A DNA stretch of 64,000 nucleotides from an uncultured Trueperaceae bacterium. Its GTDB lineage: Bacteria; Deinococcota; Deinococci; Deinococcales; Trueperaceae. Below, piece after piece: positions 994 through 49,649 of this stretch. The translations under genes and the position numbers were made by a program. Positions within the stretch are counted from its first letter, which is position 1. Each line of letters starts with the position of its first letter. Under the pieces are notes generated by a model. It did no database searches and was not told the origin of the DNA. It saw only the letters and a list, made by a program, of their open reading frames with translations. Location: contig CAWFFU010000010.1 in the NCBI GenBank assembly GCA_963815215.1, forward strand, positions 1 to 64,000, read 5' to 3'.

Positions 994-1068
994 GGGCGGT
1001 TAGCTCAGCGGAAGAGCACTCGCTTCACACGCGAGGGGTCGTAGGTTCAAATCCTATACCGCCCACCA
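994..1068 (+). tRNA. tRNA-Val (anticodon CAC), CCA encoded
   Basis: GGGCGGT/ACCGCCC acceptor stem, TAGCTCAG D-arm start, CTCGC-TTCACAC-GCGAG anticodon arm, GGTTCAAATCC T-loop, ACCA end; 75 nt. Confidence 0.97.
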
Positions 1069-1092
1069 CAGAGATAGCGTCACAGACGCAAC

Positions 1093-1128
1093 CGCCGTCG
1101 GCTCTGATTCGGAGTCGGCGGCGTTCTT
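1093..1128 (+). terminator. Hairpin terminator-like element after the tRNA (type-A right flank)
   Basis: CGCCGTCGGCTC...GAGTCGGCGGCG stem followed by TTCTT; homologous hairpins at 10088, 14716, 47847. Confidence 0.65.
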
Positions 1129-1232
1129 GGCGGAAGTGGCAGCCGATCGGAGACGAGGCAACGCCCGGTGCGACCTTCGCTCCGGGCGTTCTAGCTGGGG
1201 CCGGCGGCTGGCGGCGAGCGGGTGCCGGTGAG

Positions 1233-1457
1233 CTATGCGTCGTCATTCAGGCTGCGCCGGGCCGTCGCTGGGGTGGTGGGTTTCGCGGTAGCGAAGCGCC
1301 GTACGAAGGCGGCCATTGCGGTCGAGAATCCACGTCGCACGCTGCTGGGGGCGTTGTGCCGGGTGGCGGTGCGCGCCAGCTGTTCCCGCGCTGCGGTCCG
1401 CGTCAGGTCGTTGCGTCGGTACGTGGCGATCTGTCTTGCACTCCATGCGCTCTTCAT
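1233..1457 (-). CDS. Small hypothetical protein (74 aa), divergent from the XRE-ATPase regulator
   Basis: ORF MKSAWSARQIATYRRNDL... with RBS AAGGAGAGGAAGG. Confidence 0.5.
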   Translation of the reverse strand: MKSAWSARQIATYRRNDLTRTAAREQLARTATRHNAPSSVRRGFSTAMAAFVRRFATAKPTTPATARRSLNDDA

Positions 1458-1631
1458 CTTTGGCCTTCCTCTCCTTCACGAGTGCTGCTCGCGATGCAGT
1501 CATTTCAGCGTGTGGGAGGCGCCTTCGGGTCGCCCTGGTCGTGACCGCAGGGGAGACAGCGAGGGTGACAGGCGGTGCTACAATCGCGCCCGTAGGCTCC
1601 AGAAAGGCATCCGGGGGAGGGATGGGTACGC

Positions 1632-4600
1632 GTGGACACGCCCAGCGAGGACGCTCTGTTCGGCCCTTGGTTGCGGCGTCGGCGGAAGGTCCTCGATCTG
1701 ACGCAGAAGGAGCTCGCGCGTCGCGTGGGGTGCTCCCCCGCGACGATCCGTAAGGTCGAGGCTGACGACCGTCATCCCTCGCGTCATCTGGCGCGCGTGT
1801 TGGCGGGTGTGTTGGGGGTTCCGGAGCCGGAGCTCGAGGCGTTCGTCCGCTTCGCGCGTGGCGGCTGGGCGGATCGTCCGCCGACCAGCGCAGTGCCGGA
1901 CTTCGATCGCCCTTGGCTCGGCGGGGCGATGTCCGGTGAGGTGCCCCTGACTGCGGCGGAACCGGCAAACGGGACGCCGGAGGATGAGGCGGAGCACGTT
2001 CCTGAGGCGCCGCGCATCGTAGCTCGCGAGCGTGAGTTGGAGCGCCTCGATCGGGAGCTGGAGCATGCGCTTGGCGGCAACGGCCGCGTCGTGCTCGTCT
2101 CCGGTCAGCCGGGGCAGGGCAAGACGGCGTTGATGACAGCGTTCGCGGCGCGGGCGCAGGCCGCGCACCCGGAGTTGCTGGTGGCGGTGGGGACCTGCAA
2201 CGCGTACACGGGGCGTGGCGATCCGTTCCTGCCGTTCCGTCAGATCTTGGCGCAGTTCACGGGTGAGGTGCCCGCGGGCTCGCATCTCGATGCGTTCCAG
2301 CGCGAGCGCGCCGCGCGCCTGACGCGTGCGGTGCCCAGAGCGGCCGACATCCTCGTGCGCAAGGGGCCTCACCTGCTCGACAGCCTGGTGCCTGTGGCGG
2401 CACTGGGCGCGCGCATGCAGCAGGCTGGCGTTGCTCTGCCTCCGCTGCCCGCTACCGCTGGCTCGATGCCGGGTGCGGCGAGCATGGTGCAGCCGGGGGG
2501 CGAGAATCAGCGAGCGTTGCGTTCCGAGACCGCCGCCACCCTGGCGGCCCTGGCCGAGGACGCTCCGTTGTTGTTGGTGCTCGATGACCTGCACTGGTTG
2601 GACGACAGCTCCGCGGAGCTGTTGTTGCATCTGACTTCGGTGGTTGCGGGGCACCGTGTGCTGGTGTTGGGGGCATTCCGGCCTGCAGACCTGCAGATGT
2701 CCGGCTCAAGCGGGGCCCGCGTGTCGCATCCTCTGGTCGAGCTGGCGCAGTCGGGCGCGACCACGATCGACGTGGGTCGCAGCGACGGTCGAGCCTTCGT
2801 GGATTCCTGGGTCGACCGCGAAGCGAACGCGCTCGATGAGGACTTCCGTGCTGCCCTGGTGCGGCAGACGGGTGGGCATCCGCTGTTCACGATCGAGTTG
2901 CTAAGGGCCATGCGGGAGCGGGGGGATCTCGTCAAGGACGAGGCGGGCCGGTGGTCGGCCGCGCCGGACCTGCACTGGAATCAGGTACCGGACCGGATCG
3001 CCGACGCTCTGGCGGCGCGGGTCGGGCGTCTCGATGCCGCTGCCCGGGACGTCTTGAGGGTGGCGAGCGTGGAGGGTGAAGTGTTCACGGCGGAGGTGGC
3101 CGCCAGGCTGTTGGGGCTGGAACCGCGGCAGGCGGTCGCTTCGCTGGGTTCGGTGCTCGATCGCGGTCACCGCCTGGTGGCGGCGGTGGACGTGCAACGC
3201 GTCGCGGGCGGCCTCGTCTCTCGTTACGCCTTCCGGCACAACCTGATCCAGCGCTACGTCTACGACACCATCGATGTCGGCGAACGGGCGTACCTGCATG
3301 AAGGTGTCGCCTCTGCGCTGGAGGCGGTGTTCGGGGACGACGCCGATCCCGTGGCGCTCGCCTACCACTACACGCAGGCGCGGTCGCCGGAGAGGGCGGC
3401 GCGTCACTACCGGAAGGCGGGGGACCGGGCGCGCAGGGCTCACGCCATCGGTCAGGCGATCGCTTACTACCAGGCCGCGCTCGAGCACTGGCCCGAGGAG
3501 GAGCCCCTCGCGCGAGCGGCCCTCCTGCGTGATCTCGGCGAGTGTCAAGTCATCCGGGGTTGGGAGGAGGACGCCGGGCGCAGCCTCAACGAGGCCCGCG
3601 ACCTGTTCGAGGCGGCGGGTGACGTGCGGCAGGTGGGGCACGCGGACCGCTACCTCGCCCAGCTCGCCATCGGTCGCGGGGACGTGGCAGGTGCGGCCGC
3701 TGCTGCTCGTCGCGCCGTCGCCATGCTGGAACCGTTGGGCGACTCCGCCGAACTGGCGAGCGCCTTGTTCGTCAGAGGCTACTGCCACGTGCTCGTAGCG
3801 GAGTGGGAGGAGGCGGTGCCGTTGGCCGAGCGCGCCCTGGCCATGGCCGAGCGTGTGGACGCCCCCGCTGTTCTGGCCGAAGCCATGCTCTGCCTGGGCA
3901 GCGCCCTGGGCTACCTGGACCCGCACCGTTTCGACGAGAGCGTAGCGCTCCTCGAGCGCAGCAGCGAACTCTCCGACGAACAGGGCAACCCGATGATCGC
4001 GAGTCTCGCGCGACTCAATCTGGGGTATCATCTCGCGAGGATCGGGCGATACCGGGAGGTCCGCCTTAGCTGGGAAGCGGCCCTCGAGTACGCTCGTCGC
4101 CACCAGGCCACCACGTTCGAGACCTACGCGCTGGAGTGTCTCTGTTCGTACGCGTGGCGCCACGGCGACTGGTCGCGGGCCTTCGAGCTTTGGCGGCAGC
4201 TCCTCCAGCGCCGCGATGGCGTGGACCCTTCGGAGCACGACGGGCTGTTCGCGGATCAGGGGGTGATGTTCGCCGCGTTCGAGGCGGACCTGGGGAACCA
4301 CGATCGCGCTCTGGCCATGCTGGGGGCGCGCGACGACGCGCTTCGGCGTTTGCCCCGGGTCGGCTATCGCCTCCCCGCACTTGCCGTCTACCTTCGTGCC
4401 CATGTGGGTCTGGGCCGGAGCGACGAAGCGGATCGAGACGCCGAGGCGATCGCCGATGCCCTCGCTCCGGCGCTCTTGCCCAGTGCCAACATCACGGCCG
4501 TGTTGGAGGCGCTGCAGCACCTGGTGCAGCGGAGTCGCGAGGACGCCGGTCCCCGCATCACGACCTGCTTGCAGGTCCTGGAGCGCTTCGCGCGGCACTT

Positions 4601-4922
4601 CGAGTCGTCCCAGGCGAACGCCTCCCTCGAGGAAGCGCGGGCTCTGGTGGCAGCGTCGGCCGGCGCGTTCGAAGAGTCCGCGGACCGCAACCTCGCCGCC
4701 GCGGATGCGTGGCAGGCCGGCACCTTCCCCCTCTGGGAAGCGAGGGCTCGCGTCGCGGCCGCGCACGCCTTGCGGCGCCTTGGCCGCGAGGACGAAGTCG
4801 AGAGCCTTCTGGAGCGCGCGCGGGAACTTCTTTCGGGCCTCGCCGGGCAGATCCCCGATGACGAGCGCCGGGCCTCGTTCGCGCGCGTCATTGAAGCCAT
4901 GCTCGCGGCAAGTGCGGCCTGA
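1632..4922 (+). CDS. XRE-HTH + AAA/STAND ATPase + TPR transcriptional regulator
   Basis: N-terminal LRRRRKVLDLTQKELARRVGCSPATIRKVE (HTH-XRE), Walker A GQPGQGKT, Walker B LLLVLDDLHWLD, C-terminal TPR-like helices. Confidence 0.9.
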   Translation: MDTPSEDALFGPWLRRRRKVLDLTQKELARRVGCSPATIRKVEADDRHPSRHLARVLAGVLGVPEPELEAFVRFARGGWADRPPTSAVPDFDRPWLGGAMSGEVPLTAAEPANGTPEDEAEHVPEAPRIVARERELERLDRELEHALGGNGRVVLVSGQPGQGKTALMTAFAARAQAAHPELLVAVGTCNAYTGRGDPFLPFRQILAQFTGEVPAGSHLDAFQRERAARLTRAVPRAADILVRKGPHLLDSLVPVAALGARMQQAGVALPPLPATAGSMPGAASMVQPGGENQRALRSETAATLAALAEDAPLLLVLDDLHWLDDSSAELLLHLTSVVAGHRVLVLGAFRPADLQMSGSSGARVSHPLVELAQSGATTIDVGRSDGRAFVDSWVDREANALDEDFRAALVRQTGGHPLFTIELLRAMRERGDLVKDEAGRWSAAPDLHWNQVPDRIADALAARVGRLDAAARDVLRVASVEGEVFTAEVAARLLGLEPRQAVASLGSVLDRGHRLVAAVDVQRVAGGLVSRYAFRHNLIQRYVYDTIDVGERAYLHEGVASALEAVFGDDADPVALAYHYTQARSPERAARHYRKAGDRARRAHAIGQAIAYYQAALEHWPEEEPLARAALLRDLGECQVIRGWEEDAGRSLNEARDLFEAAGDVRQVGHADRYLAQLAIGRGDVAGAAAAARRAVAMLEPLGDSAELASALFVRGYCHVLVAEWEEAVPLAERALAMAERVDAPAVLAEAMLCLGSALGYLDPHRFDESVALLERSSELSDEQGNPMIASLARLNLGYHLARIGRYREVRLSWEAALEYARRHQATTFETYALECLCSYAWRHGDWSRAFELWRQLLQRRDGVDPSEHDGLFADQGVMFAAFEADLGNHDRALAMLGARDDALRRLPRVGYRLPALAVYLRAHVGLGRSDEADRDAEAIADALAPALLPSANITAVLEALQHLVQRSREDAGPRITTCLQVLERFARHFESSQANASLEEARALVAASAGAFEESADRNLAAADAWQAGTFPLWEARARVAAAHALRRLGREDEVESLLERARELLSGLAGQIPDDERRASFARVIEAMLAASAA

Positions 4923-4971
4923 CAGGACTCGGGCTCGAACGCCAAGGCGGCGGCAAGCGCGAGCTGCCATG

Positions 4972-4992
4972 TGACAGCCAATGGACAGCCAA
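4972..4992 (+). repeat. Putative integrase arm-type site (tandem 11-bp-period repeat), 136 bp before att copy 2
   Basis: TGACAGCCAATGGACAGCCAA; near-identical at 10132, 14511, 26623, 47891. Confidence 0.7.
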
Positions 4993-5107
4993 GCCCGAGA
5001 TTCGGGACGGTAGCGAGCGGTACGGCGCAACGGCGTAGTGTCGAGTGATGGCGTGAGGGACGCCAATGTGGGATGTGCCGTGATGAGCCAGGACGGCTCC
5101 AGCGCAG

Positions 5108-5153
5108 TTCACACGCGAGGGGGTCACTGGTTCAACTCCAGTACCGCCCACCA
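5108..5153 (+). repeat. att copy 2: tRNA-Val 3' half with variant T-stem
   Basis: TTCACACGCGAGGGGGTCACTGGTTCAACTCCAGTACCGCCCACCA; no tRNA 5' half upstream. Confidence 0.9.
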
Positions 5154-5431
5154 CGACTAGGCCCCGTCCGTGACAGTTGGCATCATCCGCCGCACGCGAG
5201 CACGTGCAACGCAGTCGATCCGAACCTCGGGGGCGTCGCACGTTCGTGTGCGGGACCGACCGCCGGCGGAAGCGCATGGGGGTCGTAGGGGCCGATGCCT
5301 CCCCGCAAAGATCTCGGCCCGGCGCACGGCTCAAACGTGCGCCGCCGAACTGGCGTGCGTGGAACACGGTGGCAGCCCATCCAGATACGCCGAGGGCGGA
5401 TGTGCTGTCACGTCCGATCGTGCCCGCGTCT

Positions 5432-5779
5432 TCATTGCCGTCCGCGACGGTACTCGACCAGCTTCACGACGTCCACGGCGAACGCGCTGAGGGCCACACT
5501 CGCGAAGAGCAGGGCCGCCAGCCAGACGTGCGGCGCCTCCAGCAGAACCAGGACGAACACGCCGAGCACCAGCACCGTCATGACACGGTAGCCAACACGC
5601 TCGGCGCGCCGAGCGATGCGCTCGTCGTGGGCCGTCCGCTGGAGACTCTGTGCGACCGTGCGGCCGCCAGCCAGGGTCGCGAGGATGGAACTGCCGATGG
5701 CGGTAGTGACGGCGCCTACGACCGTGAGGCCGATCCACGCTAGCGCTCGGAACCACGTGAGCTTCTCCTCGAACGACAT
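5432..5779 (-). CDS. Small membrane protein (DUF2178-like)
   Basis: MSFEEKLTW..., three hydrophobic segments, HDERIARRA motif, RBS AGAAGGA. Confidence 0.6.
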   Translation of the reverse strand: MSFEEKLTWFRALAWIGLTVVGAVTTAIGSSILATLAGGRTVAQSLQRTAHDERIARRAERVGYRVMTVLVLGVFVLVLLEAPHVWLAALLFASVALSAFAVDVVKLVEYRRGRQ

Positions 5780-5954
5780 GACGGTGGTCCTTCTGTGGTT
5801 CGGTTCCTGTCCGGCGGCCGGATGCGGGACAGAGGCCGAGGTCGGGCGCCCAGCCATCGTGCGAACGGTGGCAGCCATGCGGCCACCGTTCGCAGTGCGG
5901 ACGTGTGGGGCGGGTCGGGATGGCGTGCTGCCGATTCCCGTTTCGGGTAGGGGC

Positions 5955-6647
5955 TCAGGGCCTGCTGGGGACTGCAACGGGGCGGGCCTCGCGGGCCGCT
6001 TCGGCACCCCGTGCCAGCACGACGCCCAGCCACGTGAACCACACGATCTGCCCCAGCCCGAACACGAGGCCTACGGGCTCGAGAGCCGGAAGCAGCGTGA
6101 CCAGGCCGGCTGCGCCGACCACGACGCCCACCAGGTTGAGCGCACGTGGCAACGCACGCTGGCGCAGGGCTGCCACGCTCACGAGGAGCGTCCAAAGGCC
6201 CCCGACGAGCTCGTTGCCGCCGCCAAGGCCGTTCTGTACCGCCGCGATGGCCGTCCAGGCGGCGCCTGCAGCGGTCGGGTCGGTGCCGTGCAGATCGACG
6301 ACGGCCGCCGTGCCAACGTTGAAGATCATGCCGCTCGCGAGCACGAGCCCGGCCCAGAGCAGCCCGAAAGCGGTGGCGACGCGCGCGAGATCCGGCGATG
6401 CCGGGCGGATACGCTCGTGCAGCGCCAGGCTCAACACGACGAGCGCGATGCCGAACAGGATCAGGATGACCTGGTTCCACAAGTAGATCGTCGCGCGGTG
6501 CTCGGCGAAGAACGCGACGGTCTGGACGGGGTCCAACGCGCCGGTCATGTAGGGCGCCAGGACACTGAAGCCGAGCGCGATTCCGAAGGTATAGGCGGCG
6601 GCCTCGAACAGGGCGGCGTAGCCGCCCCAGCTCTGCAATCGGTTCAT
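5955..6647 (-). CDS. DUF4386-family membrane protein
   Basis: MNRLQSWGGYAALFEAAAY..., GLGGGNELVGGLW motif, several TM helices, RBS GAGGAGGAG. Confidence 0.8.
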   Translation of the reverse strand: MNRLQSWGGYAALFEAAAYTFGIALGFSVLAPYMTGALDPVQTVAFFAEHRATIYLWNQVILILFGIALVVLSLALHERIRPASPDLARVATAFGLLWAGLVLASGMIFNVGTAAVVDLHGTDPTAAGAAWTAIAAVQNGLGGGNELVGGLWTLLVSVAALRQRALPRALNLVGVVVGAAGLVTLLPALEPVGLVFGLGQIVWFTWLGVVLARGAEAAREARPVAVPSRP

Positions 6648-6741
6648 GGGGCTCCTCCTCGGGGAAGCAGCGGAGCGCCAAGGCGCTCCTGCAAGGCGTG
6701 CGGTCGGGGCGCAGCGCGCCCGTCGGCCGTGGGACTGTGCG

Positions 6742-7005
6742 TCACCTCCGATCTTCGTCGCCGGGCGGTCCGGGAGCGCTATCCGGCTCTGCGACGGCGC
6801 CATCGGTGCGGACGACCGACAGGAGCGGAGCGCCCAGGTCCCGGACCCGATTCAACACGCCGTAGAGCGCGGCCTGGTCGGGCACGTCGACGGTGAAGGT
6901 CGTGGTTCCGTTCGCCTCGCGCACGAGCCGGGCTGCGCCGAATGCGCGGGCCCAGACGTCGTCGAGGTGGCCGCGGACCCGCATGAGGTAGGTCATGGCT
7001 TCCAC
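6742..7005 (-). CDS. Conserved small ACT-like protein typical of MalT/LuxR loci
   Basis: RVRGHLDDVWA...PDQAALYGVLNRVRDLGAPLLSV signature. Confidence 0.8.
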   Translation of the reverse strand: MEAMTYLMRVRGHLDDVWARAFGAARLVREANGTTTFTVDVPDQAALYGVLNRVRDLGAPLLSVVRTDGAVAEPDSAPGPPGDEDRR

Positions 7006-7071
7006 CGCCCGGCGGTTGCGCTCGCAGCTGTCATGTCCGTGAGCGTAGAGCCGTGCCGGTGTTCCCGGGTA

Positions 7072-7085
7072 GACACGAAAGTGTC
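7072..7085. promoter_or_regulatory. Palindrome, possible operator of the MalT-like regulator
   Basis: GACAC-GAAA-GTGTC between the regulator and its downstream genes. Confidence 0.35.
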
Positions 7086-7171
7086 GTTCGGGGGGTGTTG
7101 GTGGGACGTGGAGGCGCTGGGCCGGCCGTGGCGACGCACGCGCTGCAGCGTGGATACGCGCGTCTGGAAGC

Positions 7172-9922
7172 CTAGGAAAGCAGCCCGAGCTCCCGTGCGA
7201 GGGCCACCGCCTCGGTGCGGTTGCGGGCGCCGAGCTTCGCGAAGATGCGCCGGTTGTGCCCCTTGACGGTGTCGACGGAGCGGTAGAGGCGCATCCCGAT
7301 CTCGCGGTTCGAGAGGCCGTCGGCGAGGAGGTGGAGCACCTCGACCTCGCGTCGGCTCAGGGGCTCGGCCGGCTCCGCAAGGGGCGCACGGGGTGCCGAT
7401 GTCGCGGCGCTTGTGCCGGGGCGAACCGGGCTCGGTTCCCGACCGGTGGCCCTGACCGCGTCGAACGCGGCCCGCACGTAGGCGCCTTGGCCCGCGTCCT
7501 CTCCGAGCAGTTGCACCAGGCGGCGCATCGGCGTGCCCTCGTCTGGGAAGCGTTGCAGCCAGCCATCGGGAGCGGCCGCCCGCAACGCCTGCCCGAGCGC
7601 CTCCAGCGCGCCCGTCAGCTCGCCGCGCGCCTCGCGCGCGAGGGCCTGCACGATGCGCACGTCGATTGCGCTGGCGGTGCGTGCGGCGTCCTCGGCCGCG
7701 CGGAGCAGCCGGTCGAGCAGCACGTCGGTGCCGGTCAGCAGGTCGGGGTCGGCTGCTGCGCGCGCCTCGGCGATACGAAGGCGCGCGAGCGTGAGGTGCT
7801 CGTATTCCGTCAAGTAGGACGGCTCCTCTTCGTCGCTCAGGCCGCGCGTCTCGGCCCAGGCAGCGGCAGATCGCAGGTTGCCCTCCGCCAGACGCAGGCG
7901 GGCCCGCCACGCGGCGAACGGCCGCACGTCGGGGATGGGATGGCGTGTCTGCCGCTTCTCGGCGTCGTCGAGCACGGCGATGGCGCCGGCGAGGTCGCCG
8001 TTGGATTGACGGAAGCGCGCGCGGGCAGACGCCCAGCGCCGCAGCCACGGTGGGAAGGCCGGCAACTCGCCCAGCGCCTCGGCCCGTGCAAGGTGATGCT
8101 GTGCCTCGTCCTGGACGCCGCGTTCGACCAGGAGTTCGCTCAGTCCGAGGTGAAGCACCGCACGCTCGCGTAGCTCGGGGCCACCGGCTTGCTTCACCCG
8201 CTCGAGCGTCTCGCGGTAGGTCCGGATGCCTTCGGTCAGTCGACCCTGCGCCACGAGGATGTCGACGAGGTACGTCGTGAAGCTGCTGACGAATCTCAAG
8301 TTGCCGCTACGCCACATGCCGGCGACGGCCTCGCCCGCGGCTTCGCGTGCCGGTTCGAGTTCGCCTTCCGCCCAACGGGCGAAGGCGAGCATGAGTGCTG
8401 CCAGCGCACGCTCGAAGTCGTCGCGCTCGCGCGACAGCTCGTAGGCGCGTTCGGCTTCCGCGAGCGCCTTCGGCCCGTAGCGTCCCAGGCCCTGCAGACC
8501 GTAGGCCCGTGCGTTCGCGAGGGTCGCCGGCAGGACCTCGTACTCCGGCTCGTTCGTCACGACCATCCCCTGCGCTTCGCGCTCTTGCTCCTCGATGCCC
8601 AGCCAGCGCTCCGCCTCGTACACCCAGTCGAGTGCCGGCTCGAGATCCCCTTCGTTGAGAAGGGCCCAGGCATGCGCGGCGCACAGGACGGGGCGGGCCC
8701 GCACGGTCGACTCCGGCAGTTCGCGCACCCATTGCAGCCACGCCCGGGACCGGTAGCTGCGGTCCATGTCGCGCCAGACGGTCTCGAGGAGTGCTGCGGC
8801 GCGCCCGTGCGCGCCGGCGGCGAGCGCATGCTCGATGGCCTCGGCCGCCATGCCGCACTGCTCGAACCAACGGCTGGCCCGCTCGTGCAAGGTCGGCACG
8901 ACCTCGCCCATCTCCTGCTCCAGGTGTGCCCGAAGCACATCCCGGAACAGGTGGTGGTAGCGGTACCAGAGCCGATGATCGTCGAGTTGAACGACGAAGA
9001 GGTTGTCCCGTTCGAGGGTCTCGAGCAGTGCGCCGCTTCCCTCGCGGTCGGTGACGGCGTCGCACACGTCGCTGCCGAGCCGGTCCAGGATCGAGGTCTG
9101 GAGCAGGAAGATGCGCTGATCGTGGGGCTGGCGCCGCAGCACCTCGTCGACGAGGTAGTCGAAGACGAAGCGGTGGCTGCCGGTGAATGCGGCCACGAAG
9201 GCACTTGTGTCCTCCCTGCCACGCATCGAGAGCGCTGCCATCTGCAGGCCCGCGATCCATCCTTCGGTGCGGCTCTCGAGCGCGTCGACCTCGGCCTCCG
9301 ACAGGTGAAGGCCCATGACGTGTGTGAGGAACTCGGCGGCCTCGGCCGCATCGAAGCGCAGGTCGGCGGCCCGCACCTCCGAGAGCTGTCCGCGTGCGCG
9401 GAGGCGCGCCAGGGGCAGGCGCGGGTCCTGGCGCGTGGCGATCACGAGGTGAAGTGTGGGCGGGTGGTGCTCGAGCACGAACGTGAGCGCCTCGTCCACC
9501 GCCGGTGCGTTGAGGCTGTGGTAGTCGTCGAGCACCACCGTGATGGGGCGCGCCATACGGTCGATGTCATTGAGCAGTGGCGTCAGCGTGCCCGGCTCAG
9601 GGACCGGGGGTGGCCCCTGCCGGGCCGCGGAGACGTTCGCCCCGAGTGCTGGGTCCACCGTTTGCAGCGCCGCCACGAGGTACGCCATGAACCGCCCGGG
9701 TTCGCTGTCGGCCTCGTCGAGCGATACCCATGCCACAGGCCGTTCTAGCGTGGCGACCCACTCTGCCACGAGCGTCGTCTTACCGAATCCCGCGGGCGCC
9801 GAGACCAACGTGAGCGCGCGCTCCAACCCGCGATCGAGTTGTTCGAGGAGGCGCTTCCGGGCGACGATCTGGTGCCGCCGGTGCGGCACGTACAGCTTCG
9901 TCCCGAGGAGGGGCGCCCGCAT
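7172..9922 (-). CDS. MalT-like ATP-dependent LuxR-family regulator
   Basis: LLGTKLYVP start, Walker A SAPAGFGKTT, LDDYH, WYRYHHLF, C-terminal LuxR HTH LSRREVEVLHLLADGLSNREIG; start reassigned to ATG 9922. Confidence 0.92.
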   Translation of the reverse strand: MRAPLLGTKLYVPHRRHQIVARKRLLEQLDRGLERALTLVSAPAGFGKTTLVAEWVATLERPVAWVSLDEADSEPGRFMAYLVAALQTVDPALGANVSAARQGPPPVPEPGTLTPLLNDIDRMARPITVVLDDYHSLNAPAVDEALTFVLEHHPPTLHLVIATRQDPRLPLARLRARGQLSEVRAADLRFDAAEAAEFLTHVMGLHLSEAEVDALESRTEGWIAGLQMAALSMRGREDTSAFVAAFTGSHRFVFDYLVDEVLRRQPHDQRIFLLQTSILDRLGSDVCDAVTDREGSGALLETLERDNLFVVQLDDHRLWYRYHHLFRDVLRAHLEQEMGEVVPTLHERASRWFEQCGMAAEAIEHALAAGAHGRAAALLETVWRDMDRSYRSRAWLQWVRELPESTVRARPVLCAAHAWALLNEGDLEPALDWVYEAERWLGIEEQEREAQGMVVTNEPEYEVLPATLANARAYGLQGLGRYGPKALAEAERAYELSRERDDFERALAALMLAFARWAEGELEPAREAAGEAVAGMWRSGNLRFVSSFTTYLVDILVAQGRLTEGIRTYRETLERVKQAGGPELRERAVLHLGLSELLVERGVQDEAQHHLARAEALGELPAFPPWLRRWASARARFRQSNGDLAGAIAVLDDAEKRQTRHPIPDVRPFAAWRARLRLAEGNLRSAAAWAETRGLSDEEEPSYLTEYEHLTLARLRIAEARAAADPDLLTGTDVLLDRLLRAAEDAARTASAIDVRIVQALAREARGELTGALEALGQALRAAAPDGWLQRFPDEGTPMRRLVQLLGEDAGQGAYVRAAFDAVRATGREPSPVRPGTSAATSAPRAPLAEPAEPLSRREVEVLHLLADGLSNREIGMRLYRSVDTVKGHNRRIFAKLGARNRTEAVALARELGLLS

Positions 9923-10018
9923 GACTCCAATCATAGACGGGGGAAGTTCCCGTCGTCTGCACCGGTGTGGTCGCACCCTCGGGAAGATCGCCGACCCTTC
10001 GGGATGCAACCGATGGGT

Positions 10019-10063
10019 TTCACACGCGAGGGGTCGTAGGTTCAAATCCTATACCGCCCACCA
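10019..10063 (+). repeat. att copy 3: tRNA-Val 3' half
   Basis: 45 nt identical to 1024-1068. Confidence 0.95.
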
Positions 10064-10190
10064 TGGAGATAGCGTCACAGACGCGAACGCCGTCACCTTG
10101 TCGATTAAGGTGGCGGCGACTTGTCTTCAAATGACAGCCAATAGACAGCCAATCTCGGAGGGAATCTACGATTACTGCCACGGCCCACCG
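10064..10190 (+). repeat. Type-A right flank (hairpin 10088-10118, arm-type repeat 10132-10152)
   Basis: Aligns with 1069-1150, 14692-14766 and 47823-47948. Confidence 0.8.
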
Positions 10191-10482
10191 AGGCGAGCGC
10201 AGTTGGGGTCGAGCCTGGCGGGAGATCCTGGCACCGGAGCTTGCCTTGAGGTCATCGAAGTGCGGCCGTCCCGGCCCGCGAAGTGGGGCGTGTGCATTCC
10301 GCTCTGTAGGCAACTGCTTGTTGTGACGAAGCTCGGAGCAACAGGTACCGGCGCAGCGTCACAGTGGGTATCGTCAGGCATCTTGCGGAGCGCCGACCTG
10401 CCAACTAGGGCATGGGGGAACTCGATACACCTGTCGAGGGCCTGCACACGCCGCCCCGCGAAGTGTGACTGTGAAGGACGCC

Positions 10483-10917
10483 ATGGCGTTAAAGAAATCC
10501 CAGCTCTACAGCTCACTCTGGAGCAGCTGCGACGAACTCCGCGGAGGCATGGACGCTTCCCAATACAAGGACTACGTCCTCACGCTCCTCTTCATGAAGT
10601 ACGTCAGCGACAAGTACGCCGGCAAGCCCGACGCTCTCATCGAGGTGCCGGCCGGCGGCAGATTCGACGACATGGCGAAGCTGAAGGGCGACAAGGAGAT
10701 CGGCGACAAGATCAACAAGATCATCGCCCGCTTCGCCGAAGCCAACGACCTGCGAGGCGTCATCGACCAAGCCGACTTCAAGGATGAGGGCAAGCTTGGC
10801 TCCGGCAAGGAGATGCAAGACCGCCTTTCCAGACTCGTCGCCATCTTTGACGGGCTCGATTTCCGCGCCAACCGCGCCGACGGCGACGACTGCCTGCGAC
10901 AACGTGAGGGAAGCTAG
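10483..10917 (+). pseudogene. hsdM: Type I restriction-modification methyltransferase subunit, N-terminal fragment
   Basis: MALKKSQLYSSLWSSCDELRGGMDASQYKDYVL... is the HsdM N-terminal domain; similarity ends after NRADGDD, no SAM-binding domain. Confidence 0.88.
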
Positions 10918-11113: not shown

Positions 11114-13630
11114 ATGAACTTCTGGTGTTCAGCGTCTAGTGTTGCACCAACTTCGAGGTCGGGGGGAGGTGCCGCCATCAACCGAGCCGATCCGCCGCAA
11201 GATCGTGACGTGCGTGCTGGCGGGGCGCCGGCCGGGTCGCGGGTGGCCAACCCGACCGAGTTGCGCGGCTTGGAGGTGGTGGGACTGTTGTTCCTCGATG
11301 TGGGCGGCAGCATCCAGGACGCGGACGTACGGGCCCGACAGATCCTCGGCGAGCGTTTGCGACCGTTGTTGGGTCGGGCCCTGGAGGAGGTCGTACCGCG
11401 CGCGGGCGTGGCGCTTCGACGGTCGGCCGAAAGCGGTCGGAACATGCCGTTGGCAGAGGCGTTCGTTGCGCCGCTGGAGGACTGCGTTGCTGTGGCGGTA
11501 CATCCGGCGCCGAGCGGCTTCACCGTATCGGTGCGCAGTCGTCAGGACCAGCGCTTCGATGCCGCGTCGCAGCGGCTCCGCGAGCGCATCGTGGCCAGCG
11601 TTCCCACTGGGCTGGCGGTGCTCGACGCGGGGGCGCATAGCGTGCCCGTTTTGTACGTCAACGATGCCTTCCGGAACATTACCGGTCATGATGTCGAGAG
11701 CCTGGGAGACCAGGGGGTGCGCGCCTTGGGGCCGCATCCGCGATCGTTGGCAGGTACCTTGGCCCTCGCGGCGAGTGGGGAGTCCGTGAAGCTCGAGGAG
11801 CGATTGTCTCGGGCTGATGGAACGTCGTTCTGGGGGTCGCTGACGTTTTCGCCGGTGCGAGACGAGCGTGGCCGCACGACGCACGTGCTCCTCATGCTGG
11901 AGGACGTCACCGAGCGTATCGAGGCGGGCGCGGTGGTGGAGGAGAGCGAGCGCCGTTACCGGTTGCTGGCCGAGCGCTCCGGCGACATCGTCGCGCGGCA
12001 CCGGCCCGACGGCAATCCGATCTACGTGAGCCCGGCCATCGAACGGATCCTCGGCTACGAAGCGGCTGCGTACCCCGACCTGCATCCCTGGCAGCTCGTG
12101 CATCCGGACGACCGGAAGCGCCTGCAGACGGACCTGATGGCGGTGGCGCGCGGTGCGCCGGCGCCGAGCACCGTCCTGTTCCGCACGCGGCATGCCGACG
12201 GGCACTACGTGTGGTTGGACGTGAGCCTCACCCTCATCCGGGACGAGCATGGCCACATCGCTGAGATCGTTTCGGTCAGTCGTGACGTGTCCGAGCGCGT
12301 CATCGCGAAGCGCGATCTCGAGCGGAGTCAGGAGAGCTTCCGTCGCTTGTTCGCGGAGAACCCCGTACCGATGTGGGTGCACGACGCCAGCACGCTGGAC
12401 ATCTTGGAGGTGAACGACGCTGCGCTCGAACTGCTGGGCTACGGCCGTGAGGAGTTCGTGAACACGCCCACGACGGCGTTCGTGCCGGAGGAGGACCGCG
12501 ATGCGTACCTGGCCGTCGTCGAGGCGGCGAACCGGGAGGGTGTCCGGGAGTTCGGGGAGATCAACATCCGTCGCAAGGACGGTGGCACCGTGATCGCTGC
12601 GCTGGACAAGAGCCCGTTGAGGTTCGGGGGACGCGATGCTCGTCTGGTGGTGGCGCGCGACATGACCGAGGCCAGGCAGGCGCAGCAGGCGCTCGCGGCC
12701 AGCGAACAGCGCTTCCGCCGTCTGGTGGAGCGCAGCAGCGACGTGTTCGTGATCAGCGACAACCAGGGCTCGCTGACCTACGTCAGTGATGGCGTGCAGG
12801 CCCTCACGGGGTGGACGCCGGACGAGCTCGTCGGAACGGCCTTCGTGGACCTCGTCCACGAAGATGATCGCCCCGCCATGCGGCAGTTCCGCCGCGACAT
12901 CGACGCGTACGGCGCAGCCACCCTCCCGGTCTACCGTTTCCGCCACAAGGACGGTCGCTGGCGGTGGTTCGAGGCGATCGGCCGCGACTTGCGTGACGAG
13001 CCCGCCGTGCGTGGGGTCGTCGTCAATACGCACGATGTGACCGAGCGCATGACGAATCTGAGGGAGATCGAGGCCACGCGCGAGGCGACCTTCCGGGCGC
13101 TCGGCGTGGCGCTCGAGTACCGTGACCTGGAGACCAAGGGGCACACCGACCGGGTGGTGGCGATGAGCAGGCGCTTCGCTGCCGTGCTCGGCTTGACCGA
13201 GGAGCAGGTGCAGGCGATCACGTGGGGCGCCTACCTGCACGACCTTGGGAAGGTCGCGATGCCCGACGCCATCCTCTTGAAGCCCGGCCGTCTGACCGAG
13301 GAGGAGTTCGCGGTCATCCAGCGGCACACCTTGATCGGGGAGGAGATGTGCCGCGACGTGCCGTTCCTGCCAGTCACCACCCGGCAGCTCATCCGCAGCC
13401 ATCACGAGCGTTGGGACGGTGCCGGTTACCCGGAGGGGCTGGCGGGCGAGGCCACCCCGTTGGAGGCCCGTATGTTCGCCATCGTCGACGTCTACGACGC
13501 GCTCTCGAGCGAGCGGCCGTACAAGCGTGCGTGGAGTCGCGAGGAGGCAGTGACCGAACTCAGGCACCAGGCGGGCGCGCAGTTCGACCCCGACCTGATC
13601 GCGGTCTTCCTCGAGCGGGTGCTTCCCTGA
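11114..13630 (+). CDS. Multi-PAS + HD-GYP cyclic-dinucleotide phosphodiesterase
   Basis: Four PAS/PAC-like repeats; ETKGHTDRV, LHDLGK, HHERWDGAGYP, VDVYDAL; start uncertain. Confidence 0.9.
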   Translation: MNFWCSASSVAPTSRSGGGAAINRADPPQDRDVRAGGAPAGSRVANPTELRGLEVVGLLFLDVGGSIQDADVRARQILGERLRPLLGRALEEVVPRAGVALRRSAESGRNMPLAEAFVAPLEDCVAVAVHPAPSGFTVSVRSRQDQRFDAASQRLRERIVASVPTGLAVLDAGAHSVPVLYVNDAFRNITGHDVESLGDQGVRALGPHPRSLAGTLALAASGESVKLEERLSRADGTSFWGSLTFSPVRDERGRTTHVLLMLEDVTERIEAGAVVEESERRYRLLAERSGDIVARHRPDGNPIYVSPAIERILGYEAAAYPDLHPWQLVHPDDRKRLQTDLMAVARGAPAPSTVLFRTRHADGHYVWLDVSLTLIRDEHGHIAEIVSVSRDVSERVIAKRDLERSQESFRRLFAENPVPMWVHDASTLDILEVNDAALELLGYGREEFVNTPTTAFVPEEDRDAYLAVVEAANREGVREFGEINIRRKDGGTVIAALDKSPLRFGGRDARLVVARDMTEARQAQQALAASEQRFRRLVERSSDVFVISDNQGSLTYVSDGVQALTGWTPDELVGTAFVDLVHEDDRPAMRQFRRDIDAYGAATLPVYRFRHKDGRWRWFEAIGRDLRDEPAVRGVVVNTHDVTERMTNLREIEATREATFRALGVALEYRDLETKGHTDRVVAMSRRFAAVLGLTEEQVQAITWGAYLHDLGKVAMPDAILLKPGRLTEEEFAVIQRHTLIGEEMCRDVPFLPVTTRQLIRSHHERWDGAGYPEGLAGEATPLEARMFAIVDVYDALSSERPYKRAWSREEAVTELRHQAGAQFDPDLIAVFLERVLP

Positions 13631-14311: not shown

Positions 14312-14510
14312 GCCCCAGCCTGCGTCCTCGCCGGGTGGGCGGGGGTGTCCGATCTTCCCTGGATGAAGGGCACTGTTTCTTGGGTAAGGGCGGGTTGTGA
14401 CGGCGAACCGGGGAGCCGCTTGGGATGGGGGCGTAGTGGTGCTGAAGCGCCTTCGGTCTTGACGCCGTGGCCCGGCGTTTGTAGGCGGCGGCAGCCCCAA
14501 CTCGGAGATT

Positions 14511-14531
14511 TGACAGCCAATTGACAGCCAA
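14511..14531 (+). repeat. Putative arm-type site, 136 bp before att copy 4
   Basis: TGACAGCCAATTGACAGCCAA. Confidence 0.7.
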
Positions 14532-14646
14532 GCCCGCGGATTGTGGTGGGGTACGAGCGAACGTAGCGGGACGGAGCCGGTTAGGTGTGGCGTTTGGCAC
14601 GCGAATTCGGTAAGTGGCGGCATGAGGCGTGATGGGCAGCGGGCAG

Positions 14647-14691
14647 TTCGCACGCGAGGGGGCGTAGGTTCGAATCCTATACCGCCCACCA
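14647..14691 (+). repeat. att copy 4: tRNA-Val 3' half
   Basis: TTCGCACGCGAGGGGGCGTAGGTTCGAATCCTATACCGCCCACCA, 3 mismatches to the tRNA; followed by type-A right flank. Confidence 0.93.
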
Positions 14692-14766
14692 CAGAGATAG
14701 CATCACAGACGCGAACGCCGTCACCTCGTCGATTGAGGTGGCGGCGACTTGTCTTCAATCGACAGC

Positions 14767-36012: not shown

Positions 36013-36016
36013 CCCC

Positions 36017-36856: not shown

Positions 36857-36857
36857 C

Positions 36858-38081
36858 GTGCGTGCCCTTCGTGGGTTGCTTCTCGTGCTCGCGCTCGCGG
36901 GCGGATCGTCGCTCGGCTGGGCCCAGGTGACGCTGGGCGGCGAGGCGAGTGCCCGGTTCGGTGTCGCGATCGATGGGAGCCTCCCCATCGCCGCCGCTCA
37001 GCTCGAACTCGACGTGAAGGGGGAGACGGGATCCGGGTTGTTCCCCGACGCCACCTTCAACGCATCCCTCATCGCCCGCTACGACGCTGCCGGGTCGAGC
37101 GAGGTACGCCTCGGTGAGGCCTTCGCCACCCTCTATCTCGGCGGTCTGGAGCTCTCGGTGGGCCAGCAGGACGTCGCCTGGGGCACGACCGTGGGCATCA
37201 ACCCGGTCGACGTCGTGAACCCTAGAGACCGCTCCTTCCCGCCGGACATCCAGAAGCTCCCGGTTCCGATGGTGCATGCCAGCTACTACCTGGGCGACGT
37301 CGCCCGCATCGAAGCCGCGCTCGTCCCTGTGTTCGTGCCATCGGTCCTCCCGGGGGACACCTGGCAGTCGTCTCAGACGATGTCGCCTCCGCAAGGCGTC
37401 ACTGTCGTCGGCCAGCTCCCGAGCCAGGACGACCGTCCTACGGCCGGGCTCGACAACGTCCAGGTCGGCCTGCGCGCGACCGCCACACTGCCGGGATTCG
37501 ACGTGAGCGCCACGTACTTCCACGGCTTCCGCAGCCTGCCCACAGTGCAGAAGTCCCTCGTGCCGAGCGGACCGCCGGGTGAGTTCCTCGTCCAGCCGGT
37601 CGCGCGCTACGACCGTATCAACGTCGTCGGCGCGGACTTCTCCCGCGTCATCGACAACGTGGTCATGAGGGGCGAAGCCGCGTACACGTTCACGGCGGAC
37701 CCGAACGGCAGCGACCCAGCCATCGGCAACCCGTCGTGGCAGGCCGTGCTGGGGGGTGAGTACGCCGTCCCCAAAGGTCCGAGGGTCGTCCTGCAGGGCG
37801 TTCTCGACGTAAGGGTGCCAGACCAGGGCACGAGCGCCGACACCCGTTTCAAGACCATGACCATGCTCTCCTACCAGGCCGGCACGCGCAGCCAGATCGA
37901 CCTCGGTTGGATGCAGGATCTCGATGGCAGTGGCACCCTGCTGCCCAGGCTCTCGTACACCTTCGCCGACGGCGTGGTCGGTCACGCTGACGGCTACATC
38001 TTCTACGGTGCGGACGGAACGGAGTTCGGCGGCTGGCGTGGCAACTCGCAGCTGCGCGTCGGGCTCACCTATTCGTTCTGA
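36858..38081 (+). CDS. Outer-membrane beta-barrel protein (DUF1302-like)
   Basis: Signal peptide, VGQQDVAWG...NPVDVVNPRD, C-terminal LTYSF. Confidence 0.75.
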   Translation: MRALRGLLLVLALAGGSSLGWAQVTLGGEASARFGVAIDGSLPIAAAQLELDVKGETGSGLFPDATFNASLIARYDAAGSSEVRLGEAFATLYLGGLELSVGQQDVAWGTTVGINPVDVVNPRDRSFPPDIQKLPVPMVHASYYLGDVARIEAALVPVFVPSVLPGDTWQSSQTMSPPQGVTVVGQLPSQDDRPTAGLDNVQVGLRATATLPGFDVSATYFHGFRSLPTVQKSLVPSGPPGEFLVQPVARYDRINVVGADFSRVIDNVVMRGEAAYTFTADPNGSDPAIGNPSWQAVLGGEYAVPKGPRVVLQGVLDVRVPDQGTSADTRFKTMTMLSYQAGTRSQIDLGWMQDLDGSGTLLPRLSYTFADGVVGHADGYIFYGADGTEFGGWRGNSQLRVGLTYSF

Positions 38082-47777: not shown

Positions 47778-47822
47778 TGCACACGCGAGGGGTCACGGGT
47801 TCAAATCCAGTACCGCCCACCA
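47778..47822 (+). repeat. att copy 6: tRNA-Val 3' half with variant T-stem
   Basis: TGCACACGCGAGGGGTCACGGGTTCAAATCCAGTACCGCCCACCA. Confidence 0.9.
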
Positions 47823-47948
47823 CAGAGATGGCGTCACAGACGCGAACGCCGTCACCCCACCGATCGAGGTGGCGGCGCGTTGTCTTGGCGTGACAGGCAA
47901 TGGACAGCCCATCTCGCAGGGCATCCGCGACTACTGCCGCGGCCCACC
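47823..47948 (+). repeat. Type-A right flank (hairpin 47847-47877, arm-type repeat 47891-47911)
   Basis: About 125 bp colinear with 10064-10190. Confidence 0.8.
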
Positions 47949-48101
47949 ATGCCGTCTAGCCCGATAACGCTTGTTGCCGTGGCAAGCGAAGGACCTGTGC
48001 TATGTTCCGTAGCGCCTTTCGCATCTTCGTGGAGGCGCGCCGGTCGGCGCGCGGGCGTTGTGGTGTCGGGCCGTCGGTAGAGGGCCCCGAGGGAGGAAAC
48101 C

Positions 48102-49421
48102 GTGGTCTCGCGTCTTCGATTCGTGAGCGTTGCTGCTGCCTTCGTTGTGCTGGTGCTGCTGATGGCCGGCTGTAGTCAGCCGAGTCCGAGCGTCTCTGCC
48201 TTCTCGGCAAGCGACGCGTTTCTGTCTAGTTTCGGGGGGGCCACCACCCTTAGCTGGAGCGGCAGTGACGTCACCGACTACAGCTTGAGCGTGAGCCCCA
48301 GCGCCGGCGTGAAGATCAACGGCAGCGCCTACACGGGCCCGGCAGATCTCGGCACCAGCACCAGCGCGACCGTGAGCTTCCCGAGCAACCCCAGCCCCAG
48401 CAATTTCGACTACATCGTCACCATCACCGCCACCGGCAGCGGAAGCGCCCACACGGGCCCGGAGACAACGCCCGTCACGGTGGTGGGGCAGCACGCCACC
48501 GTGTACTCCAACTCGACGGGCAGCTACGGCTTCGACTACGTCGCTGGGGTGGCGGCAGACGGCGCCGGCGACATCTGGATCGTCAACGGCCTCGGGAACA
48601 GCTTGACGGAGTTGCCGGCCGGGAACTCCACGCACCCCACTGTCTACTCCGGCAGCAGTTACGGCTTCAACATCCCCGTGGGGGTGGCGGCGGATGGCAG
48701 CGGCAACATCTGGGTCACCAACCCCGGCGGGGCCAGCGTGACGGAGTTGCCGGCCGGGAACCCCACCAACCCCACTGTGTACTCCGGCTTCAACGGCCCC
48801 CGTGGGGTGGCGGCAGACGCTAGCGGCAACATCTGGATCACCAACAGCGGCGGGAACAGCGTGACGGAGTTGCCGGTCGGGAACCCCACCAGTCCCACTG
48901 TCTACTCCGGCAGCAGTTACGGCTTCGGCTACCCCTGGGGAGTGGCGGTGGACGGCAGCGGCAACATCTGGATCGCCAACAACGTCGGGAACAGCGTGAC
49001 GGAGTTGCCGGCCGGGAACCCCACCAGTCCCACCGTTTACTCCGGCAGCAGCTACGGCTTCAACTACCCCTCTGGGGTGGCGGTGGACGGCAGCGGCAAC
49101 ATCTGGATCACCAACAACAGCGGGGACAGCGTGACGGAGTTGCCGGCCGGGAACCCCACCAGCCCCACCGTCTACTCCGGCAGCAGCTACGGCTTGAACG
49201 GCCCCTGGGGGGTGGCGGTGGACGGGAGCGGCAACGTCTGGATCACCAACCACAGCGGGACCAGCGTGACGGAGCTGCAGGCCGGGAACCCCACCAACGC
49301 CATCACCTACTCCGACAGCAGCTACGGCTTCAACAGCCCACGTGGGGTGGCGGTGGACGGCAGCGGCAACGTCTGGATCGCCAACAACGGCGGGGACAGC
49401 GTGACGGAACTGTTGCATTGA
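48102..49421 (+). CDS. Lipoprotein with seven NHL-type repeats
   Basis: Lipobox MAGC, RBS GGGAGG, seven GVAxDxxGx(I/V)W(I/V)xN units. Confidence 0.9.
   Translation: MVSRLRFVSVAAAFVVLVLLMAGCSQPSPSVSAFSASDAFLSSFGGATTLSWSGSDVTDYSLSVSPSAGVKINGSAYTGPADLGTSTSATVSFPSNPSPSNFDYIVTITATGSGSAHTGPETTPVTVVGQHATVYSNSTGSYGFDYVAGVAADGAGDIWIVNGLGNSLTELPAGNSTHPTVYSGSSYGFNIPVGVAADGSGNIWVTNPGGASVTELPAGNPTNPTVYSGFNGPRGVAADASGNIWITNSGGNSVTELPVGNPTSPTVYSGSSYGFGYPWGVAVDGSGNIWIANNVGNSVTELPAGNPTSPTVYSGSSYGFNYPSGVAVDGSGNIWITNNSGDSVTELPAGNPTSPTVYSGSSYGLNGPWGVAVDGSGNVWITNHSGTSVTELQAGNPTNAITYSDSSYGFNSPRGVAVDGSGNVWIANNGGDSVTELLH
48501..49415 (+). repeat. Intragenic tandem repeat, unit mostly 135 nt (45 aa), 7 copies
   Basis: TACTCCGGCAGCAG recurs at a 135-nt period (48903, 49038, 49173); unit 3 lacks 12 nt. 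Confidence 0.9.
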
Positions 49422-49604
49422 GGGTCCGTCCGTCGAGCAGGCCTGCGTAGTCTGCGGGCGGGCACGGCCGCCAACGCCCTTCCGACGGTATCCCGGCAGT
49501 TGGGCGGGGAAACGCGGTTCTGCACCGGGAGGGCCATCCCAAAGAATCCTGTCTCCGTCGGAATCTCGGGAAGACAGTGAACCCAGCGGGGGGCACTGAA
49601 GGGT

Positions 49605-49649
49605 TTCACGCGCGAGGGGTCGTAGGTTCAAATCCTATACCGCCCACCA
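49605..49649 (+). repeat. att copy 7: tRNA-Val 3' half
   Basis: TTCACGCGCGAGGGGTCGTAGGTTCAAATCCTATACCGCCCACCA, 1 mismatch; type-B left and right flanks. Confidence 0.95.

Follow-up and report, generated by a model that had tools for sequence, protein, structure and literature searches.

The window analysed here, the first 64,000 nucleotides (nt) of contig C10 in the assembly of an uncultured Trueperaceae bacterium (genome G000), carries a long array of accessory modules behind a single valine transfer RNA gene, tRNA-Val(CAC). We conclude that the interval 1069-49649 is probably a genomic island that grew through a series of site-specific insertions at the anticodon loop of this tRNA, and that its six modules resemble cis-mobilizable elements (CIMEs), which are stretches of cargo bounded by attachment (att) sites. 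The array is a clear case of a known route of island growth and not a new gene-capture machine. It is also unusually readable, with seven repeats of the tRNA 3′ half, three arm types, an arm-site motif at fixed spacing and zero integrases.

According to ARAGORN, the window holds one tRNA only, the intact tRNA-Val(CAC) at 994-1068 on the plus strand. This is the sole tRNA-Val(CAC) locus of the assembly, since the copy on contig C14 belongs to an overlapping contig end. Its 3′ 45 nt (1024-1068, designated R0) form the core of attL. When this core was searched for at up to 3 mismatches, it was matched at 10019 (0 mismatches), 14647 (3), 26759 (1) and 49605 (1), and 100 shuffles gave zero matches at the same threshold. 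Two additional copies, at 5108 and 47778, exceed 3 mismatches and were detected by a repeat search. The seven core copies (R0-R6) are all in direct orientation, and their start-to-start distances are 4085, 4910, 4628, 12112, 21019 and 1827 nt. An earlier sequence-only reading of the window had reported six direct recurrences of the last 45 nt of the tRNA, as well as the spacing of the modules between them, and our core search, repeat search and distances agree with it on both points.

Individual copies differ in informative ways. R1 (5108-5153) has one extra G and a compensatory variant of the T-stem, R2 (10019-10063) is exact, R3 (14647-14691) has 3 mismatches and R4 (26759-26803) has one. 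To the right of R4, at 26804-26866, is a flank of a second type, which has a hairpin of its own. R5 (47778-47822) carries a T-stem variant, and the final copy, R6 (49605-49649), differs from the tRNA at one base, position 37, and is followed by ~20 nt similar to the flank after R4. The T-stem changes in R1 and R5 are paired, ACTGG..CCAGT and ACGGG..CCAGT, compared with GTAGG..CCTAT in tRNA-Val. In a comparison set of 127 related genomes of the family, the R1 variant is that of the resident tRNA-Val in genome G093, and the R5 variant equals the T-arm that tRNA-Val has in G056, a member of another genus. In all copies, similarity to the tRNA begins with the first base of TTCACAC, the 7-nt anticodon loop, and the flanks to the left of the core copies differ from the tRNA 5′ half. 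Integrases of the anticodon-loop class cross over at the loop and restore the tRNA with the copy that the element brings. Elements of the lambda/P4 type, which integrate into tRNA genes with a tyrosine recombinase and cross over in the anticodon loop, constitute one of Williams' sublocation classes. The starting point of the homology and the lambda-type arms described below bear out the previous proposal that the repeats are att sites with crossover in the anticodon loop.

The att arms are of lambda type and span roughly 125-165 bp. A P′ arm is common to the right flanks of R0, R2, R3 and R5, with mutual identity of 73-93%, and consists of ~8 nt, a G+C hairpin resembling the terminator of the tRNA and, beyond it, a pair of 9-nt GACAGCCAA words spaced by 11 nt. 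Both motif copies are intact after R2 and R5, where they start 69 nt past the core; the motif is degenerate after R0, and a single copy is left after R3. A P arm is common to the left flanks of R1, R3 and R4, and has two GACAGCCAA words 115 nt before the core and a conserved block adjoining the core. Although these P arms are only 67-69% alike overall, motif identity is 18/18 in R1 and R3 and 17/18 in R4, and the spacing between motif and core is equal in all three. At the sequence level, this exact conservation argues for constraint in the element family. Selection on the integrase-less copies themselves is not implied, because the arms in a related genome of the genus, G097, diverged as much as the cargo. 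The word TGACAGCCAAT, pointed out in the sequence-only reading, had 7 matches at ≤1 mismatch versus 0.53 expected, all of them beside the repeats.

A matched, motif-bearing P′/P pair was found only in modules 1, 3 and 4, and all arms located are on the plus strand. Module 1 is bounded by a P′ arm at 1069-1194, with the hairpin and the degenerate motif (identity to the P′ arms that follow R2, R3 and R5 is 73-79%), and by a P arm at 4945-5107, whose tandem GACAGCCAA at 4973-4992 precedes the core by 115 nt. Module 3 has a P′ arm at 10064-10189, with the hairpin and two GACAGCCAA words at 10133-10152 (69 nt after the core), and a P arm at 14483-14646, with two at 14512-14531 (at a distance of 115 nt from the core). 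In module 4 the P′ arm is cut short after ~75 nt, and the P arm (26610-26758) carries GACAGCTAA/GACAGCCAA at 26624-26643, again 115 nt before the core. Module 6 has a P′ arm only (47823-47948, with GACAGGCAA/GACAGCCCA at 47892-47911, 69 nt after the core), and modules 2 and 5 have other or weak arms, the right flank of module 5 being a weak relative of the P arm (z about 3). In addition, the left flanks of R2 and R6 (60 nt) are alike at 39/60 positions (z 6.9 versus shuffles), and the right flanks of R4 and R6 start alike. The flanks are of several types. The view of the modules as unrelated minimal cassettes is only partly right: the matched pair is confined to modules 1, 3 and 4, and the arms of modules 2, 5 and 6 are mixed or unrecognised. 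Judged by its sequence, R3, with a P arm to its left and a P′ arm to its right, looks like an attP site, as expected of a junction between tandem elements.

The arm motif also occurs next to integrases. In G000 itself, the integrase at C10:327877-328989 (a 409-codon frame) lies directly behind tRNA-Ala(GGC), and the interval between the two repeats the P′ arm layout, with a hairpin and then TTGACAGCAAT TTGACATCAGT. An exact-motif scan of sequence collections yielded 8 viral loci and at least 118 metagenome loci, 80 of the latter with flanks, so that 88 loci were examined. A homologous integrase adjoined the motif in 5 of the 88 (L126, L135, L141, L155 and L163), and neither an integrase nor the valine core was present in the 8 viral loci. 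The related integrases are usually encoded ~10-250 nt away from the P′ motif and on the strand opposite to it. In L155 the integrase is followed by the motif and tRNA-Ser(CGA), and in L163 by the motif and tRNA-Gln(CTG). Because the same motif stands beside integrases at these two tRNAs, GACAGCCAA is, on sequence grounds, an arm code common to integrases with different tRNA targets. Among the family's 128 genomes, the motif at ≤2 mismatches was found beside tRNA-Val only in G000, G094, G093 and G097, all of the same genus.

Several loci with parts of this arrangement are worth describing separately. The integrase at tRNA-Ala(GGC) (C10:327692-328989, locus L008) is intact, and codon bias is poor in the ~5 kb that follow; no further copy of the tRNA-Ala(GGC) end was found on contig C10. 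In G093, locus L056 (G093:C179, 1355-1650) contains a tRNA-Val with the R1-type T-stem, after which the P′ hairpin and motif run into the remainder of a P arm, free of cargo; its sequence looks like a deletion between two motif copies. On contig C11, a broken P arm (C11:168852-170212; L006:4853-6213) is 84% identical to the R1 arm and carries two exact GACAGCCAA words. It continues with the first 21 nt of the valine core and then ends abruptly, and a 189-residue integrase fragment is present ~0.6 kb past the break, on the other strand.

The earlier statement that the modules contain no recombinase, relaxase, Rep or phage protein was confirmed by Pfam, hidden Markov model (HMM) and open reading frame (ORF) scans. 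Pfam detected none of these among 51 likely window genes, and a six-frame PF00589 search of the genome gave 5 matches, none within the window. An HMM built from five related integrases was run against 1189 six-frame window segments, with a best E value of 0.22; as a control, it recovered an untrained 196-residue integrase fragment on C11 at 7.5e-21. It found no remnant in any module, contrary to what would be expected if each module carried a decayed integrase. Among 150 alternative-frame ORFs of 1-23.8 kb there were 0 Pfam matches at 1e-4 (181 ORFs of 23.8-52 kb were unscanned). Serine recombinase families PF00239 and PF07508 were absent from the whole genome, and its sole rve match is on C11. 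A genome-wide search for tyrosine integrases beside the repeat placed the resident enzymes at other tRNAs and none at the valine core.

Several candidates for a helper integrase were rejected. The gene at C11:1569-2700 shares 48-61% identity with the integrase found at tRNA-Val in G023, but it is frameshifted and lies beside a tRNA-Ala(TGC) repeat. The intact integrase at C10:327877 is beside tRNA-Ala(GGC), whose core is unrelated to the valine core. At C11:170044-170212, a broken P arm is joined to 21 nt of core, and the nearby integrase fragment is wrongly oriented. An SSV-type integrase split by its own att site was also considered, and no integrase-like frame abuts any repeat. The first of these regions (C11:1-2946) comprises an excisionase-like helix-turn-helix gene and the frameshifted integrase, which adjoin a 25-nt copy of the tRNA-Ala(TGC) 3′ end, and the tRNA-Ala(TGC) gene itself is at the start of contig C3 (C3:1536-1611). 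The ends of contigs C11 and C3 probably flank one unassembled element.

Comparison with relatives revealed variation in content from one att site to the next, as had been suggested: metagenome contig L112, a contig of run X10 and genome G094 differ from the array at the repeats. G094, a sister species, has the same P′ arm behind tRNA-Val and then unrelated cargo. In G097, tRNA-Val and the P′ arm are followed by a homolog of module 1 at 88% identity, compared with about 85% for core genes, and another contig of this genome has the end of the module 1 gene, the P arm and the repeat. In G099, module 1 is 99% identical, and contig C59 covers the end of module 4, R4 and module 5 sequence beyond it at 95-100% identity, compared with 86-94% for core genes. 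This contig has two deletions, one of 4.2 kb between the 28734 and 32952 repeats and the other at 33148-37567 (MMPL-LolA-DUF1302). Contig L112, one of the 88 motif loci and a close relative of module 1, is 97.6% identical to the 3′ part of module 1, the P arm and the repeat. Past the repeat it has a flank like that after R6 over the first ~20 nt, and no module 2. A 6.4-kb contig of run X10 likewise shows module 1, the repeat and then the same flank as L112, similar to the end of the array. Summed contig depth, a rough measure of module abundance, was about 30/2-3/<1.5 for modules 1/2/3 in X10, 11/4/0.8 in X9, 28/16/12 in X1 and 8/8/8 in X4. Overall, the stretch is present in sediment, soil and salt-marsh metagenomes, and genus-conserved genes resume near 52.9 kb.

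These data do not fit the suggestion that the newest module lies next to the tRNA. Module 1 is directly behind tRNA-Val in G097, at core-like divergence (88% versus about 85%), which makes it, by sequence comparison, old in the genus. Furthermore, a flank like that at the end of the array directly follows module 1 in L112 and X10, and the extra modules are therefore distal to module 1. In the wider family, 34 of the 127 related genomes had at least two matches to an att query (a tally of matches, not of copy numbers, that includes the unpublished G090). Four core copies and a single, frameshifted integrase are present in G056, and G023 has an intact 393-residue integrase inside its tRNA-Val module; no integrase was found in the tRNA-Val module of G027. 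Our literature search found no paper on integrases in Trueperaceae genomic islands.

The assembly comprises 3.3 Mb in 14 contigs, with 70% G+C and 97% completeness, and its contig ends overlap one another at 97-100% identity. C10:1-1069 overlaps C14:79366-80407 at 97%, and G094 is colinear with C14 up to the tRNA, which indicates that C14 precedes C10. C14 continues past tRNA-Val with a different tail of 1.7 kb, so the assembly forks at tRNA-Val; C10 is uninterrupted through all six repeat copies. The tail (C14:80407-82111) consists of an R4-like flank, ~500 nt of C-rich low-complexity sequence and an FG-GAP repeat gene. The flank after R4 is ~87-90% identical to this tail over about 60-108 nt. 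We rejected the tail as an empty site, since the likeness to the R4 flank stops after ~60-108 nt and odd C-rich sequence follows. It may represent another strain or an assembly artefact.

We propose that lambda-type tyrosine integrases with an N-terminal arm-binding domain would have made the insertions, each of which would bring a new tRNA 3′ half and leave the old one as a direct repeat. The six modules, now integrase-less, would be CIME-like cargo between att sites. The mixed arms of modules 2, 5 and 6 would be expected if different repeats of the array recombined. At the population level, modules are gained and lost at the repeats; this would come about through an incoming helper integrase, acting in trans or in cis, and homologous recombination between repeats would be an alternative route of exchange. 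In G000 itself, which has no valine-specific integrase, the array is probably static. The repeats, the arms, the association of motif and integrase, the lack of a recombinase and the module polymorphism are direct observations, whereas the identity of the integrase, the functionality of the arms and the route of exchange are inferred. Serial accretion, claimed before, is upheld by the seven direct core copies and the matched arms of modules 1, 3 and 4, and the claim of an integrase acting in trans also stands, as this is the only way in which the modules could move as units. A foreign origin of modules is supported at the sequence level by the T-stems of R1 and R5, which match tRNA-Val of G093 and G056, and by identity to G099 above the level of core genes.

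Several observations weigh against this account. The 97%-complete assembly lacks a valine-specific integrase, and none was found near any tRNA-Val core in nine other genomes of the genus, most of which are fragmented. Mobility is therefore only putative. Two att-junction patterns had 0 matches in viral and genome collections, from which near relatives were possibly left out. In runs kept as contigs, where rare variants are dropped, we saw no circle junction and no empty site of a single module. The integrase slot beside all four P′ arms is occupied by unrelated sequence in which no remnant is left; it would be odd for clean deletions to have happened four times independently, and simple decay does not explain this absence. 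In G097, the arms of module 1 are 80-82% identical and the gene 88%, which shows no sign of selection on the arms since the split. Finally, the high identity to G099 spans multi-module stretches and could reflect homologous recombination of the whole island, not cassette movement. Certain joints in the runs were considered as circles and rejected. The X10 joint that goes back from 5063 to 1027 is better explained as module 1, P arm, a core with the native T-stem and a foreign flank, and the X1 joint from 5154 to 1077 may come from a strain whose tRNA has the variant T-stem. Other joints, with sides of 20-28 letters, were attributed to other tRNA-Val genes or paralogues and disregarded.

The array could alternatively be an inert fossil, in which remains of integrase-bearing elements became fixed and strain differences arose from recombination or deletion between the 45-nt repeats and from replacement of the whole island. 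Such an origin would account for the lack of a cognate integrase in the genome, the genus and the searched collections, the truncated hsdM gene in module 3, the degenerate arm motifs at R0 and R5, and the G097 arms, which are no better kept than the cargo. It would also fit the G093 locus, where the P′ motif is fused to a P-arm remainder as if cargo had been lost between motif copies, and the G099 deletion between the exact 45-nt repeats at 28734 and 32952. We nevertheless consider it unlikely. The motif is exact and its spacing fixed in arms that are only 67-69% alike overall, and module 1 recurs as one unit of arm, gene and arm in three or more species and in several metagenomes, with an abundance unlike that of its neighbours. 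In addition, no integrase remnant was found in the modules, though the 196-residue remnant elsewhere was easily detected. A scenario of the opposite kind, which we also regard as rather unlikely, is that the units form an actively maintained class of satellite cassettes, whose arms are kept by selection as the valine integrase of a phage or conjugative element shuttles them. Its clearest case would be module 1, which occurs in several species and metagenomes and in which a P′ arm and a P arm enclose a lone, regulator-like STAND ATPase gene.

The sequence-only reading had gone further and described an integron-like gene-capture platform, with minimal cassettes collected at the tRNA through an integrase in trans. 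In full, this would mean a dedicated, selected system with a fixed site at tRNA-Val. Six integrase-less units, two of them with single genes (modules 1 and 6), the lack of any integrase remnant and the recurrence of the integrase-less state at tRNA-Val in G094 and G097 are in line with it. However, there is no resident platform integrase, no attI- or attC-like structure and no shared outward promoter; module sizes range from 1.8 to 21 kb and the regulators are encoded within the modules themselves (MarR, TetR, Crp, ArsR and LuxR), the arm types are mixed, the long lambda-type arms are typical of self-mobile elements, and relatives in the family (G023 and G056) have integrases inside such modules. 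This description is therefore very improbable and we do not retain it. Still less probable is that the array was created by joining contigs of different strains at the 45-nt repeat, even though the source data are metagenome-like, contig ends overlap at 97-100%, the assembly forks at tRNA-Val and module depths vary between runs. Modules 1-3 are evenly deep in X4, and long contigs at 99+% identity cover all three in X1; G099:C59 independently shows modules 4 and 5 joined at R4, L112 independently has module 1 with the P arm and the repeat, and arm pairs match across modules. Tandem accretion of CIME-like modules remains the account that we favour.

The cargo, annotated mainly with Pfam, lies on both strands, with the regulators mentioned above distributed among the modules. 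Module 1 has a single plus-strand gene (1632-4922) for a 1096-residue protein with an XRE helix-turn-helix domain, an AAA_16 (STAND-type) ATPase domain and TPR repeats. Module 2 (5154-10018) codes for a DUF4386 protein and a MalT-like LuxR regulator (Pfam and NCBIfam), and has no motif-bearing arms. Module 3 contains a truncated type I methyltransferase (10465-10917, plus strand; Pfam HsdM_N, and positions 1-138 of 810 in the PADLOC MTase_I profile) and a signalling protein with four PAS domains and an HD-GYP-type (HD_5) domain (11114-13630, plus strand). The methyltransferase remnant, which corresponds to the first ~140 residues, directly follows the P′ arm of the module, and its truncation is a sign of decay. 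We rejected a reading of the array as a defence island, since PADLOC gave just this truncated methyltransferase and weak domain-level matches. The cargo of module 4 (14692-26609) comprises DUF1801, MarR, ABC transporter, FG-GAP, DUF1214/DUF1254, DUF4386, TetR and beta-lactamase-family proteins. Module 5 (26804-47777; 21 kb) has an NHL protein, an epimerase, Crp, TetR, MMPL-LolA-DUF1302, CMD and DUF488, as well as flavodoxin, PHO4, a heavy-metal P-type ATPase with ArsR, and PPK2. In module 6, the only gene encodes an NHL-repeat protein (48081-49421, plus strand), with internal 135-nt repeats; eight tandem 135-nt units, equal to 45-residue NHL repeats, were located at 48389-49456.

Two other repeats were observed. 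An exact 45-nt repeat lies inside two TetR-family genes of module 5, at 28734-28778 and 32952-32996, and the 4.2-kb interval missing in G099 looks as if it had been deleted by homologous recombination between these copies. A repeat of ~70 nt (..CGCTGCAAC.CTTCATGATGGAC..GGGGGCGGTGGTGC) occurs at 14764-14834, 19864-19934 and 54572-54620. Several other genomes of the genus have it too; in G096:C371 two copies lie immediately upstream of an integrase. It is also present past the core repeat in L112.

The array illustrates that a tRNA hotspot can carry ~49 kb of accessory genes, including regulators, transporters and functions in metal and phosphate handling, and that these genes differ between co-occurring strains. 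The arm motif offers a concrete handle on the missing helper and on the mobility of integrase-less modules. If the satellite-cassette scenario were true, tRNA-Val in this genus would be an open, helper-served site of gene exchange, the carrier of the helper would circulate in salt-marsh and soil communities, and the common GACAGCCAA arm code would let one helper family serve many tRNA sites.

Comparison with known systems helps place the array. As described in PMC5704250, CIMEs have kept attL and attR and lost the genes for integration and transfer, and they are expected to move only with the integrase of an incoming element; at ICESt1/ICESt3-type sites of Streptococcus thermophilus, elements stand in tandem at the 3′ end of the target gene and composite arrays form by site-specific accretion. 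On the evidence of their sequence, our modules fit that published definition: they are att-bounded, tandem units without integration or transfer genes. They differ from the S. thermophilus CIMEs described there in that the target is a tRNA anticodon loop instead of the 3′ end of fda, that all six units are integrase-less, with no integrase-bearing partner in the array or, for the valine core, in the genome, that the host is a Trueperaceae bacterium, and that mobilisation is putative. For the Dehalococcoides ssrA islands, PMC3146451 reports 15 that lack an integration module and are proposed to be cis-mobilizable; the serine recombinase of these islands is DsiB, and their 20-bp repeat lies in the tmRNA T-loop. 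The likeness to the islands in that report is in tandem units behind one small-RNA gene, bounded by 3′-end repeats and strain-specific in content; the differences are our 45-nt repeat that starts in the anticodon loop, the tyrosine-integrase arm sites and the fact that no module keeps an integration module. Tycheposons of Prochlorococcus, in the description of bioRxiv 10.1101/2020.12.28.424599, are tRNA-targeted and separated by partial tRNA copies, newcomers push older ones along, degenerate remnants form variable islands, and cultures are heterogeneous for excision. Our units, too, are tRNA-targeted and parted only by partial tRNA copies. Tycheposons are defined in that source by their own recombinase and replication modules; no such module was found among the window genes, and the array would fall outside that definition.

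With lambda/P4-type tRNA elements, the array shares the identity block from the anticodon loop to CCA and attP arm sites on both sides. In such elements, the integrase is normally beside the tRNA-proximal arm; here it is missing from every unit. Anticodon-loop elements of the tyrosine-integrase type encode their own integrase, and none was detected in any module by Pfam, PF00589 or HMM searches. The sequences do suggest arm-binding integrases, as the motif was found beside homologous enzymes in 5 of 88 loci and, in near-identical form, at the genome's own tRNA-Ala(GGC) integrase. The array is like integrons in outcome only, as a row of integrase-less units at one site. It has no intI, attI, attC or Pc; its modules are large, multi-gene and self-regulated, its att sites are double-stranded and of lambda type, and the boundaries, unlike those of integron cassettes, are tRNA halves with 125-165-bp arms around modules of 1.8-21 kb. 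The analogy with integrons fails on every defining feature. Our best reading, by analogy, is that the array stands close to CIMEs, Dehalococcoides ssrA islands and tycheposons, and would represent accretion of a known kind.

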